64,000 nt of DNA from Spirochaetia bacterium (GCA_963668315.1 OY764216.1:4064001-4128000), one strand, 5' to 3'. Positions 46,344 through 50,355 are shown, numbered from the stretch's first letter. Program-made: numbers and translations. The notes: generated from the letters alone by a model not told the origin.

Positions 46344-47279
46344 TCAGCCGGCCGATTTCTCGTAAAATTCACCGTAACAGACCGGTTCATTCGATTCCAT
46401 GAGGGCCATTGCCTTGCGGGGGTGCTGATTCAGGATTCCCGAAACGGCATAGGGGATCCGGTATCCCCACTTGAGCCGGTTCATCAGGGGTTCGATTTCC
46501 CTCTGGATGACATTAAAAACGGGTATCAGATTGCCCGAGGAGGACCCGATTTTGGAAAGGAGCAGTTCCAGAGGCGTATTGCCTGCCCCCCGCCCCATTC
46601 CGAAATAGGAGCCGTCGATATATTCGGCGCCCGCTTCGACGGCGGCAAGACTGTTTGCCAGGGCCATCTGCGTGTTGTTATGTCCGTGGAATCCCAGTTT
46701 TTTTTCGGGACAGAACGCTCTGTACTCCTCCAGACGGCTCTGGATATCCCGGGGAAGAAAGGAACCGAAGGTGTCGGAAAGGTATATCCCCGACGCGCTG
46801 GAACGGTTCACCTTTTCCAGACACGCCCTCACCTCTTCGGGAGTGCCGGTGGAAACAGCCATGATGTTGATGAATGTCTCATATCCGAGATCCACCAGAT
46901 AATCGGATAACTCCAGGGCCTCATCGATCTGATGGACATAACAGGCCAGACGGAAGATATCGATGAAGGAATCCCTGCGGGGGATAAAGTCCTCCTTATA
47001 GACTCTCCCTATATCACCCATGACGGCGATTTTCATATTTCCCTTTCCCCGGACGGCGACTTTCCGGATCAGCTCCTCGGGGCAGAACTTCCAGGGTCCG
47101 TGCTCTTCGGGATTGAAAACTTTCGGACTGACCCGGTAGCCCATCTCCATGACTGATATCCCGGCGGCCTTATTGGCTTCAAATAAGCCGGTGACCGTCT
47201 CCAGAGAGAATTCCCAGTTGTTCATCAATCCCCCGTCCCGCACGGTGCAATCGATCAGTTTCGGTTCCATAGTACTCAT
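46344..47279 (-). CDS. DRE-TIM metallolyase, HOA-like stand-alone aldolase catalytic domain
   Basis: DCTVRDGG, DTFGS, GFHGHNN, GMGRGAGN, WGY.IPY..SG.LNQHP; AAGGAG RBS. Confidence 0.9.
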   Translation of the reverse strand: MSTMEPKLIDCTVRDGGLMNNWEFSLETVTGLFEANKAAGISVMEMGYRVSPKVFNPEEHGPWKFCPEELIRKVAVRGKGNMKIAVMGDIGRVYKEDFIPRRDSFIDIFRLACYVHQIDEALELSDYLVDLGYETFINIMAVSTGTPEEVRACLEKVNRSSASGIYLSDTFGSFLPRDIQSRLEEYRAFCPEKKLGFHGHNNTQMALANSLAAVEAGAEYIDGSYFGMGRGAGNTPLELLLSKIGSSSGNLIPVFNVIQREIEPLMNRLKWGYRIPYAVSGILNQHPRKAMALMESNEPVCYGEFYEKSAG

Positions 47280-47307
47280 ATCTCAACTCCTTGAATCGGC
47301 TGAAGGC

Positions 47308-47345
47308 AAAAAAAAGGACCCGGGATTTTGTTGATCCCGGGTCCT
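47308..47345 (-). terminator. Attenuator terminator
   Basis: 12-bp stem AGGACCCGGGAT/ATCCCGGGTCCT, 7-nt loop, T-run; lies between the leader peptide and the aldolase RBS. Confidence 0.92.
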
Positions 47346-47364
47346 GTAATTACCGTCTGGTAAA

Positions 47365-47466
47365 TTACCGCATTCTCTGCGGCGTACAACGACCCGGGCA
47401 TCTAAAGTAAAAATAGAAACCAAAAAAATAGGAGAAAGTAAAATTTCTTGCCAGGGTCATATTCAT
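47365..47466 (-). CDS. Phe/Tyr-rich attenuator leader peptide (MNMTLARNFTFSYFFGFYFYFRCPGRCTPQRMR)
   Basis: 7 Phe + 3 Tyr in 13 consecutive codons; followed by antiterminator segment CCCGGGTC and the terminator; TTGACA at 47504-47499 upstream. Confidence 0.85.
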   Translation of the reverse strand: MNMTLARNFTFSYFFGFYFYFRCPGRCTPQRMR

Positions 47467-47533
47467 ATTAACAACTCTTTACCAAGGATTCCCTTTTTTG
47501 TCAAGGTACCGCCTATAGAAAAGGCTCTTTCAG

Positions 47534-48277
47534 TCAAGGCTCAATTCCGTACCTTTCCAGTATGCTCAGGTATGTTCCGTTCTCTCTTATCAGGGCGAGA
47601 CCGGTATTAAAAGCGTCAATCAGCTCCCGGCCCTTGGGATTATCCCTCCCCGCGGCGACGTACAGGGGCTTAACGGAAAGGGAGTTTTCTGTGAATTCGA
47701 TTTTTTCCAGAAGATCCGGATCCGCACGGAGAATCACCTCCCTGGCGACCAGTTCATCTTCGAGGGTAAGATCAATTCTATCGACAATCAGCTTGCGAAT
47801 ATTGGTAATAAGATCTGACGAGCTGTCTTTACTGAAAAAGGAGGCTGCCTGAAACTCCTCATCGTAGATAAATCTCTTGATGACGCCCACGTTCTTTCCC
47901 CGCAGACTCTCCAGCCCCTCATATTCGAAAGGGTCTCCCCGTCTCTTGATGAATTTCACCGTATTGGTGATATAGGGATCACTGAAATACATGAGGCCGT
48001 TCCTTTCCTCACTGTACCAGGTATCGGGAAGGATATCGTATTTACCCGATATCACTCCCAGCTCGGCCCGGGCCCAGGGAATGTATTCCATCCGAACGGT
48101 ATATCCCTGAGTTGACAGGGCGGCCCTGATAATCGCCAGCGATATGCCTCCGGTGTCGTCTTGTTCATCAACGTAGGGCACCCACTGACCGGCGGCGGCA
48201 GAGACAGTTCTTTCCTGAGGGAAAAATAGGGTTGAAGAAATAAGGAAAAAAAACACCCCTTTCATGAATCTGGCCAT
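47534..48277 (-). CDS. Orphan periplasmic substrate-binding protein (family 3-like)
   Basis: WVPY....GG, PWARA, YSEER...FSDPY, FNTGL..I.ENG.Y..I..RYG. Confidence 0.85.
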   Translation of the reverse strand: MARFMKGVFFFLISSTLFFPQERTVSAAAGQWVPYVDEQDDTGGISLAIIRAALSTQGYTVRMEYIPWARAELGVISGKYDILPDTWYSEERNGLMYFSDPYITNTVKFIKRRGDPFEYEGLESLRGKNVGVIKRFIYDEEFQAASFFSKDSSSDLITNIRKLIVDRIDLTLEDELVAREVILRADPDLLEKIEFTENSLSVKPLYVAAGRDNPKGRELIDAFNTGLALIRENGTYLSILERYGIEP

Positions 48278-48396: not shown

Positions 48397-50280
48397 TCAT
48401 TCGCCCGCCAGCACTTCTCCGGCGGCTTTCTCTCCGGCGATCCGTCCCGTGTTCATGGCGAAGCTCATGGTGAGGCCTTCCAGATCGGGATAGGAGTTGT
48501 CATACATTCCGCCCGCGTCGGCGCCTACGGCAAAAAGGCCGGGAATGACAACCCCGTCTTCCTTCATGGCCTGGGCGTCTTCGTTAATCCGGACTCCCCC
48601 GATGGAACCGTAGGAGGAACCGCTGACCTTAACAGCGTAGAAGGGCCCCTGTGATACGGGATACACCAGATAATCGGGATTTTTGTAGAACATATCGTCC
48701 TTACCGGATCTGACAGCCTCATTATACCGGGCGGCGGATTTTTCCAGTTTTTCCGCCTTCATGCCGGTGGCTTTCGCCAGATCAGCCAGGGTATCTCCTT
48801 TGAAAAGGACATTTCCCTGATCCATCAGCTTATTGATATCATCCTGGAGAGAGGGAAGAGGACCAATAACGATATTCACGTCGTTTCCTCCCTGGGGATG
48901 CATCAGTCCGGAACCGTTCATCTGATAGGCGCCGGTCAGGTTGAGTCCTTCGGTCATGAAGGTATCCACGCTTGCCTGGTCGAAGACGGCGAAGTACTCA
49001 CCGCCGGCGGCAAAGGTGGCGTTGCCCCAGATAACATTATCGTAGGCGACCCCTTCGTCCACAAACCGGGTTCCCTCTTTGTTTACCCAGAAGAGGGGGG
49101 CGTCCTTGACCTGGGCCACGGCGCTGTCCCCGTAACGGTTGAAGATGGTCTTGGAGCCGCTGATATCGCCCAGATGGATCTGAATGGCGTGGTTGCCCAG
49201 CTTGTCCGCTCCTGCTTTCCAGGCCATTTTCACCCCTTCTCCCTGGTTTCCCAGGCCGAAGTAGTTGTAGTGATTGATCTGGCTGTTCTCTTTCATCATT
49301 TCGGTGTTTCCCCCGAAACCGCCCGAAGCCAGGATCACTTTCTTGGCCCGCACGGTCAGGATGCCTCCGTCCTCTTTCTCGGCGATGACACCGGCAATCT
49401 GTCCCTCTTCATCCTTCAGAAGGTCGACGGCCCGGGTGTTCAGCCGGAGGTCGAGACCATACTCATTCTGCATTCTTTCATAAAGGGCGGGGAAATCTTC
49501 CTTGGAGTTATCCCACATATGGTAGGTTTTGGGATAATCCAGATGGGCTTTCTGGTCGATACCCAATCCCAGATGCAGGCGGATCCCGTTCTCCATCAGC
49601 CAGTCGATGGTGGAGGAGGATTTATCCAGCACGGCTCTCATCAGGGGGCCGTTGGATCGGTAATGGTTGTACTCGATAAGGTGCTTGAAAATTTCTTCCG
49701 TGGTGACATGGTAGCCGGCGGCTTTCTGCAGGGAAGATTCGGTGGCCAGAAGTCCCATTCCGGTCGTGGCCAGACCTCCCACCTTATCCAGCTTTTCCAG
49801 AACGGTGACTTTAACCCCGGCCTGGGCGGCGGAAAGGGAGGCTCCTGTTCCCGACGTACCCGCACCCACGATGACCACATCGGTGGAAATCTCTTCATCC
49901 ACACCGGAAGCGACCTCTTGGGGGATCATGCTATCCGGATCGATGCCCGCCTTTGCCAGAGCGTCGGAAGCGGCATCCAGGATGGCTTCGCTTGTCTTGC
50001 TGGCACCGGATACCGCATCGATTTTTGTGCTCTGCCGTTCCAGTATCGCCTTCTGCAGTTTGGTCACGGCCAGAGAACCGATTCCCTCCGTTTCATGGGG
50101 GGCCGATATCTGCACATCCTTGATGACTCCCTTCGTATCGATGTCCAGGGTGACGGAGAGATTCCCCCCCATCCCTTCCGCTTCGGACGTATAGGTGCCC
50201 GGTTTCACCTTGTTTCCCCCGCAGGAAAACAGGGCCAGGGCCAACACTAAAATGGCCGTGATTGTTAACACTCTTTTCAT
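48397..50280 (-). CDS. Lipoprotein FMN-binding (flavinylated) + FAD-dependent flavocytochrome c/fumarate-reductase-superfamily reductase
   Basis: Lipobox LFSC; HETEGIG; DAVSGASKTS flavinylation motif; VGAGTSG; ASGGFG; GLFAVG. Start MKRVL with AGGAG RBS. Confidence 0.9.
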   Translation of the reverse strand: MKRVLTITAILVLALALFSCGGNKVKPGTYTSEAEGMGGNLSVTLDIDTKGVIKDVQISAPHETEGIGSLAVTKLQKAILERQSTKIDAVSGASKTSEAILDAASDALAKAGIDPDSMIPQEVASGVDEEISTDVVIVGAGTSGTGASLSAAQAGVKVTVLEKLDKVGGLATTGMGLLATESSLQKAAGYHVTTEEIFKHLIEYNHYRSNGPLMRAVLDKSSSTIDWLMENGIRLHLGLGIDQKAHLDYPKTYHMWDNSKEDFPALYERMQNEYGLDLRLNTRAVDLLKDEEGQIAGVIAEKEDGGILTVRAKKVILASGGFGGNTEMMKENSQINHYNYFGLGNQGEGVKMAWKAGADKLGNHAIQIHLGDISGSKTIFNRYGDSAVAQVKDAPLFWVNKEGTRFVDEGVAYDNVIWGNATFAAGGEYFAVFDQASVDTFMTEGLNLTGAYQMNGSGLMHPQGGNDVNIVIGPLPSLQDDINKLMDQGNVLFKGDTLADLAKATGMKAEKLEKSAARYNEAVRSGKDDMFYKNPDYLVYPVSQGPFYAVKVSGSSYGSIGGVRINEDAQAMKEDGVVIPGLFAVGADAGGMYDNSYPDLEGLTMSFAMNTGRIAGEKAAGEVLAGE

Positions 50281-50294
50281 AAGATCTCCTTTTA

Positions 50295-50355
50295 TGACCA
50301 TGGTCACTGACCGCGGTCACCGAAGCATTCTACAGAGACATCTTTTAATTGTCAA
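50295..50355 (-). promoter_or_regulatory. Sigma70 promoter TTGACA-17-TAGAAT with tandem palindromic operators TGACC-N2-GGTCA x2
   Basis: TGACCATGGTCA at 50295-50306 and TGACCGCGGTCA at 50308-50319, between the promoter and the RBS. Confidence 0.8.

Follow-up and report, generated by a model that had tools for sequence, protein, structure and literature searches.

The classical attenuators of the pheL, trpL and leuL type and the Acholeplasma uORFC-13-1 combine a leader peptide rich in cognate codons with an adjacent antiterminator and an intrinsic terminator, and the report on Acholeplasma places this Phe uORF (uORFC-13-1) and its terminator upstream of aroF only (Brewer et al, PMC8632094). 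In the present study, an arrangement of the same kind was analysed on the minus strand of a window of 64,000 nucleotides from a Spirochaetia bacterium, in front of a gene for a 311-aa protein. Among described enzymes, the 4-hydroxy-2-oxovalerate (HOA) aldolases DmpG, BphI and HsaF (TIGR03217; 1NVM, 4JN6) share with this protein the full-length DRE-TIM fold, the R-D and H-x-H metal site and the tyrosine that controls stereochemistry. In BphI, the aldehyde pocket is lined by Leu-87 and Leu-89, and Tyr-290 is responsible for (4S) selectivity (PMC3962088).

The DAHP synthases of types I-alpha, I-beta and II have in common with the present system the product that we propose, control by F/Y/W leaders and a chorismate mutase-like partner, but they belong to an unrelated sequence family, and their reaction needs PEP and cannot be reversed. 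The donor of a DRE-TIM aldolase would instead be pyruvate or oxaloacetate. Ran, Draths and Frost reportedly engineered the KDPGal aldolase DgoA to make DAHP from pyruvate and erythrose-4-phosphate (E4P) in E. coli. That work is said to show the proposed reaction to be possible in the engineered host; unlike the present protein, DgoA in that form is a laboratory construct with a class I Schiff-base fold, a fold shared by the Eda-like partner gene described below. A search of the literature outside subscription journals found no description of the aldolase family or its leader; the main text of GapMind 2026 (PMC13759103) had no match for 'aldolase' or 'DAHP', and passages of PMC13678936 were unrelated to the family.

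The leader, its predicted switch and its conservation

The original prediction had placed a TTGACA hexamer, a uORF, the strand CCCGGGTC, a terminator stem, an RBS and a 311-aa ORF in this order, and the coordinates of every one of them were reproduced (Table 1). The consensus promoter scan did not call the TTGACA/TG-n-TAAAGA promoter, and the start site is predicted at, or a few nucleotides from, the leader ATG. Since the uORF has no RBS and starts 38 nt past the start of the -35 hexamer, it is probably translated leaderless. Genome-wide, only 2 of the 58,490 short ORFs hold at least 10 F/Y/W in 13 codons.

Table 1. Features of the leader and of the gene that follows it, in window coordinates
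Feature	Position	Strand	Remarks
-35 hexamer TTGACA	47499..47504	-	Read directly; upstream of the leader in 8/8 orthologous loci
Weak extended -10 (TG-n-TAAAGA)	47476..47484	-	17-nt spacer after the -35
Leader peptide ORF, 33 codons, MNMTLARNFTFSYFFGFYFYFRCPGRCTPQRMR	47365..47466	-	7 Phe, 3 Tyr, 0 Trp
Sensing run, codons 9-21	47404..47442	-	7 Phe and 3 Tyr
Antiterminator strand CCCGGGTC	47391..47398	-	Can pair with the 5' arm of the terminator
Intrinsic terminator, 12-bp stem, 7-nt loop, 8 T	47308..47345	-	Stem 47345-47315, T-run to 47308
RBS AAGGAG	47287..47292	-	
Gene for the 311-aa DRE-TIM metalloenzyme, similar to HOA aldolases and of an uncharacterised family; candidate aldolase forming DAHP from pyruvate	46344..47279	-	

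Terminator-like sites by themselves were not in excess in the region (4 found, 4.5 expected in shuffles); the folding of the leader gave z = -4.25, with 0/200 shuffles as good. When the ribosome was treated as a mask in constrained folding, the antiterminator formed with stalls at codons 9, 11, 14, 17 and 19 and was lost with the ribosome at codon 21 and beyond. In the mechanism that we infer, a ribosome stalled on codons 9-19 would leave CCCGGGTC free to hold the 5' arm of the terminator and allow read-through, and one that has moved past codon 21 would cover CCCGGGTC and let the terminator form. Scarcity of aromatic amino acids is thus predicted to turn the aldolase gene on.

The closest orthologues of the aldolase were found in Spirochaetales genomes, and an aromatic-rich leader with a terminator precedes the orthologue in 8 distinct spirochaete genomes, namely in the window, L003, L004, L005, L009 and L043 (proteins 55-70% identical) and in L232 and L241 (47%). 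A quick tree built from 104 rows unites these 8 loci in a single clade (SH-aLRT 97); it omits 86 of the 126 unlabelled loci and 46 of the 60 CM loci. Trp codons occur in 7/8 of the orthologous leaders, the window leader being the exception. The distance from TTGACA to the leader start is 36-40 nt in six of the loci, where translation is probably leaderless; in the other two, which start with TTG, it is 57-58 nt. Leaders were compared by duplex energies, as the divergent rows are out of register in the MAFFT leader alignment; the cognate duplexes of antiterminator and 5' arm lie between -20.5 and -26.4 kcal/mol, and no more than 3 of 2000 shuffles equalled them. The strand CCCGGGTC is invariant in 6/6 close loci, although L003 reads it in a different frame, and the antiterminator co-varies with both terminator arms in L232 and L241, where each antiterminator pairs most strongly with the 5' arm of its own locus (-21.5 and -21.7 kcal/mol). 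When 146 Spirochaetia genomes were scanned with a model of the leader built from sequence only, it gave strong matches at the aldolase gene only, and none of its 18 weak matches (E 8e-5 or worse) was a leader preceding an aro gene. Three spirochaetes (G001, G038 and G698) carry two family members each, one with and one without a leader. The genes that flank the locus in the window are not kept around the orthologues; they are a family-3 solute-binding protein (47534-48277) and an FMN/FAD flavocytochrome-c-like reductase (48397-50307) upstream, both on the minus strand, and histidine kinases downstream. Conservation in 8 genomes with compensatory base changes strongly backs the claim of a leader-peptide attenuator, and we consider this regulatory reading to be close to certain.

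Leaders of like build with a terminator were found in the same genome before leuA (Ile/Leu; G000:C1:872836, minus strand), asd (Thr; G000:C1:466043, minus strand) and trpS (Trp-Trp; G000:C1:5316337, plus strand), so that leader content predicts gene function in this genome. All three start about 35-40 nt past a TTGAC hexamer, begin with M/V-N and are probably leaderless attenuators as well. No F/Y leader precedes either of the two DAHP synthase genes of the window genome. Elsewhere, all type I-beta loci fetched from the order of G187 (4/4) have an F/Y/W leader and terminator before the canonical aroF. A long F/Y/W/C-rich leader with a terminator stands before aroF and a prephenate-dehydrogenase-like gene in L219 (2623-2793, minus strand) and in L220-L222, and in the Bacillota order of these leaders the trp operon is under a T-box. 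In comparison with the classical attenuators, the present one has mixed Phe/Tyr/Trp sensing and a direct 2:3-type switch, is probably leaderless in 6/8 loci and controls an uncharacterised gene; its leader matches no Rfam family.

The DRE-TIM protein and its active site

The 311-aa protein is HMGL-like (PF00682, 98 bits), with no other Pfam match, and scores below every NCBIfam cut-off. Its best NCBIfam matches are the HOA aldolase models (125 against a cut-off of 229 bits for PRK08195, 110 against 286 for TIGR03217), and no DmpG_comm domain was matched. The acetyl-CoA-dependent Claisen synthases (LeuA, HCS, CimA and Re-citrate synthase) gave at most 65 bits against cut-offs of at least 413 and align to residue ~270 only, the protein being without their post-barrel subdomains. 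It is not a member of the DAHP synthase families PF00793 and PF01474. The closest fold to its AlphaFold2 model (pLDDT 93) is 3DXI (BVU_2661; Z 35.1, rmsd 2.4, 290 aligned, TM 0.84), followed by DmpG (Z 32.8, rmsd 3.0, 301 aligned); 3DXI and the DmpG-type aldolases match the model along its entire length, and the acetyl-CoA synthases reach Z of at most 27.4. Residues R14, D15, E45, H198 and H200 are invariant in 57 sequences. The protein is a DRE-TIM metallolyase, a TIM barrel with R-D, Glu and H-x-H metal ligands.

The protein differs from DmpG, BphI and HsaF in its low identity (22-28%, sub-cutoff), in the lack of a dehydrogenase partner and in its biosynthetic contexts. The original prediction had noted that a DmpF/MhpF partner was absent, and this was confirmed for the whole genome, in which TIGR03215 was not found (96.95% complete); no acylating acetaldehyde dehydrogenase was present among the clustered neighbours of the homologues either. 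The active site differs too. Compared with the fetched DmpG, the His after RDG is replaced by Leu18, which indicates that the mechanism differs from that of the HOA aldolases. The hydrophobic aldehyde pocket L-L-L-P-G of DmpG becomes M87-x-D89-I-G-R92, with D89 and R92 invariant, and the stereo-controlling Tyr of DmpG (GYAGVY) aligns with the invariant Y277; the BphI residue numbers were mapped onto the fetched DmpG by inference. As judged from the residues, this polar pocket would suit a hydroxylated, phosphorylated aldehyde. By analogy, a like facial selectivity on E4P would lead, through a swap of CIP priorities, to a 4R product, and 4R is the configuration of DAHP and KDO8P.

BVU_2661 (3DXI) and a KdsB-linked sister clade share the motifs RDGG..N.W.F and WGY..PY..G...HP with the window protein. 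Members of the sister clade, also uncharacterised as far as found, are longer and lie in polysaccharide loci in which the aldolase is followed by KdsB and a HAD phosphatase, or occur as KdsB fusions (L211:7804-10942; L278:5995-8997; P0133-P0151). The sister-clade aldolase, standing where KdsA normally stands, is a candidate non-PEP ulosonate synthase, and this company suggests that the lineage may make 3-deoxy-2-ulosonate phosphates.

Distribution, gene neighbours and resident DAHP synthases

The family ranges over spirochaetes, Bacteroidota, Bacillota, Lentisphaerae and several uncultured lineages, with a tandem double form in euglenids, a diplonemid and Oxyrrhis. Members were found in 26/301 Spirochaetia, 9/301 genomes in the phylum of G046 (one of the sister clade), 8/103 in the order of G187, 22/151 in the phylum of G089 and 3/251 in the phylum of G050. 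They are now labelled '4-hydroxy-2-oxovalerate aldolase', 'aldolase catalytic domain-containing protein' and even 'H-NS'. The tandem double-domain proteins (P0121-P0128, 719-765 aa; Euglena, Eutreptiella, Artemidia and Oxyrrhis) have no obvious targeting peptide; in the quick tree, those of Euglena cluster with sequences from Bacteroidota.

In a tally of 227 loci, 60 had a PchB/CM neighbour, 27 a KDPG/KDPGal-aldolase-like neighbour, 8 the leader and 6 the trp operon; the other 126, many with flanks of just 1.5 kb, had none of the four. These contexts fall on different clades, and loci inside one context are related, so that the number of independent events is small. In the order of G187, the gene lies between trpE(G) and trpB in 6/8 hosts. 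In G187 itself, whose locus was the only one fetched with enough flank, the trp operon is complete and opens with a T-box that has a UGG specifier. Searches for T-boxes at other Bacillota loci found none in 5 sources (3 of them Bacillota) or in 8 loci; a set of 10 sources gave one. A protein of 1058 aa (P0131) in which TrpE(G) is fused to the aldolase domain has a long branch and clusters with the trp clade.

The PchB/chorismate-mutase-like gene lies directly upstream in the 60 loci, which are from Bacteroidota where named, with gaps of -61 to 136 nt, and its catalytic Arg, Arg, Lys and Arg are invariant in 50 aligned sequences. Fusions of this partner to the aldolase were absent among 7 longer matches, which is a weak test; other PchB-like domains (P0168-P0173) are fused to PF01042 (RidA-like) or PF01980 (TsaA-like). 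A KDPG/KDPGal-aldolase-like (Eda-like) neighbour was seen in 29 loci of several clades, including 2 found after the tally. Its motif (AVGG/ACGG/xSGG) is without Thr in 25 of the 27 readable sequences and is PTGG in L331 and L332. The motif could be read as a signature of KDPGal-type stereochemistry; as the best PDB match is a Thermotoga KDPG aldolase, this reading was dropped and is not counted as evidence. By themselves, the PchB-like and Eda-like neighbours are no proof of a shikimate role.

Homologue neighbourhoods had been proposed as a place to look for aromatic links, and such links were found in the trp operon with its Trp T-box, the TrpE(G) fusion and the PchB/CM-like neighbour. The expected company of aroB, aroK or aroC was not seen. 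The direct neighbours are chorismate-consuming enzymes, and among the loci examined the gene never adjoins aroB, aroC, aroK or a DAHP synthase, barring L055, where a type-I DAHP synthase/chorismate mutase gene lies two genes upstream. The predicted sensing of Phe and Tyr agrees with the 7 Phe and 3 Tyr of the window leader, but the signal is not Phe/Tyr-specific, since Trp occurs in 7/8 leaders and the trp operon of a different clade has a Trp T-box. This mixture directs attention to the common pathway. The link of the gene to aromatic amino acid biosynthesis is strongly backed by conservation and independent gene contexts, and we regard it as highly probable. As further observations, an indolepyruvate-oxidoreductase-like TPP/POR gene pair adjoins the homologue in two unrelated loci (L007:7149-9438 and L061), homoserine dehydrogenase is directly downstream in L093 and L171, and a copy on a Priestia plasmid lies a few genes away from meta-cleavage genes.

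The window genome has two DAHP synthases above curated cut-offs, one of type I-alpha and one of type I-beta that carries a prephenate dehydratase fusion, and a type II enzyme was not found in it; aroB, aroC, chorismate mutase, prephenate dehydratase and the trp operon are also present. L001 (580-2475, minus strand) encodes a 631-aa protein that joins type I-beta DAHP synthase to prephenate dehydratase and has no chorismate mutase domain, and frames of like length occur in other Spirochaetales. When 50 of the 79 hosts were searched, judged mostly by score and frame length, 49 had a PF00793 match of DAHP-synthase score or size, although not each was classified; further hosts had a DAHP-synthase-like match in 5/5 and 5/5. 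The sole exception, G089, prompted a test in its phylum, in which 22 carriers of the gene were compared with 28 of the 129 non-carriers, taken in list order. A type I-beta enzyme over the cut-off was found in 1/22 carriers and 17/28 non-carriers; 7 carriers had type I-alpha and 5 had type II. All three types were missing in 8/22 carriers and 5/28 non-carriers (p = 0.12) and, among aroC-positive genomes, in 6/19 and 3/26 (p = 0.10, or p = 0.05 with a sub-cutoff match in G840 discounted), these being one-sided Fisher tests on mutually related drafts whose completeness is not established. Five drafts of 7-10 Mb (G089, G820, G875, G890 and G900) have the gene, aroB and aroC, with only KdsA in PF00793 and no match to a type I-alpha, I-beta or II DAHP synthase; in two of them the gene adjoins the Eda-like partner. 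These five are candidate sole users of the aldolase; the difference between carriers and non-carriers is suggestive and not significant.

Proposed reaction and its meaning

Control by Trp-only, Phe/Tyr-only and mixed signals is explained most simply if the controlled step comes before chorismate; the step that known operons control in this way is DAHP synthesis. DAHP-forming aldol chemistry is thus the most likely candidate for a single reaction. In our best reading, to which we give an even chance, the protein would be a metal-dependent aldolase that joins pyruvate (or oxaloacetate) to E4P and makes DAHP, both the substrate pair and the direction being predicted. In this genome it would act as a third, PEP-sparing isozyme that is called up on starvation, and a few other genomes may depend on it as their sole source of DAHP. 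Against this reading stand the canonical DAHP synthases kept in the window genome and in most hosts, the weak difference between carriers and non-carriers, the lack of adjacency to aroB and aroC and the replacement of the His after RDG. Moreover, a plain pyruvate aldol reaction is reversible, and the pairing with a second aldolase is left unexplained.

Alternatively, the enzyme may belong to the same regulon but work in reverse as a house-cleaning aldolase. Its substrates would be by-products of high shikimate flux (DAH that has lost its phosphate, DAHP epimerised at C4, or C6/C8 ulosonates from the wrong aldose), from which it would release pyruvate and an aldose. Cleavage is the usual direction of HOA-like enzymes and would account for the co-occurrence with canonical DAHP synthases as well as for the second pyruvate aldolase alongside in 29 loci. 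Repair enzymes, however, seldom stand under an amino-acid attenuator of their own, and here the leader is on the aldolase gene with none on the canonical DAHP synthases of the genome. As the KdsB-linked sister clade also looks biosynthetic and the five gap genomes would not be accounted for, we think this explanation rather unlikely.

We judge it similarly improbable that the barrel binds another 2-oxo acid (phenylpyruvate-type, prephenate or oxaloacetate) or supplies a precursor in some other aromatic-linked reaction, working with enzymes that use chorismate and release pyruvate, such as TrpE(G) and the PchB-like protein. The direct neighbours do consume chorismate and are not aroB or aroC, DRE-TIM enzymes use many 2-oxo acids, and the catalytic His is replaced; yet a need under both Trp-only and Phe/Tyr-only control should place the step upstream of chorismate. 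Moreover, the T-box operon has all trp genes and the window genome has aroB, aroC, chorismate mutase and prephenate dehydratase, so that no downstream gap is evident, and no chain-elongation partners like leuCD or leuB were seen.

An ordinary catabolic HOA aldolase with an incidental leader would agree with the best NCBIfam matches, the DmpG-like fold and the Priestia plasmid copy near meta-cleavage genes, but the scores far under the cut-offs, the lack of DmpF and of a DmpG_comm domain, the different pocket residues and a leader kept with compensatory changes make it very unlikely. The original prediction that the gene replaces AroF/G/H in this organism is hardly tenable, because two intact canonical DAHP synthases above curated cut-offs are kept and 49/50 other hosts have a DAHP-synthase-like match, even though the only F/Y leader with a terminator of such strength in the genome sits on the aldolase gene.

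Returning to the pyruvate-dependent synthesis of DAHP, a wider form of this reading can be put forward tentatively, with the balance somewhat against it. The widespread unannotated DRE-TIM family would make DAHP from pyruvate in nature and provide a fourth way into the shikimate pathway, unrelated to the known ones and in some lineages the only one, and at the same time its sister clade would be a non-PEP stand-in for KdsA in ulosonate-containing polysaccharides.

Overall, the attenuator is a further instance of a known leader-peptide type, and the enzyme, should our reading be right, adds an unrelated isozyme to a textbook step. The present study gives a pathway context to the large family that carries the labels listed above. 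An error in the chemistry proposed here would leave untouched both the regulon assignment and the F/Y/W attenuator of spirochaetes with its probably leaderless translation. If DAHP is indeed made from pyruvate, tools that look for pathway gaps would have to include an additional step, and Kdo-like sugars would by implication have a parallel route of their own; nature would then already have the PEP-sparing entry to the shikimate pathway that metabolic engineers reportedly built.
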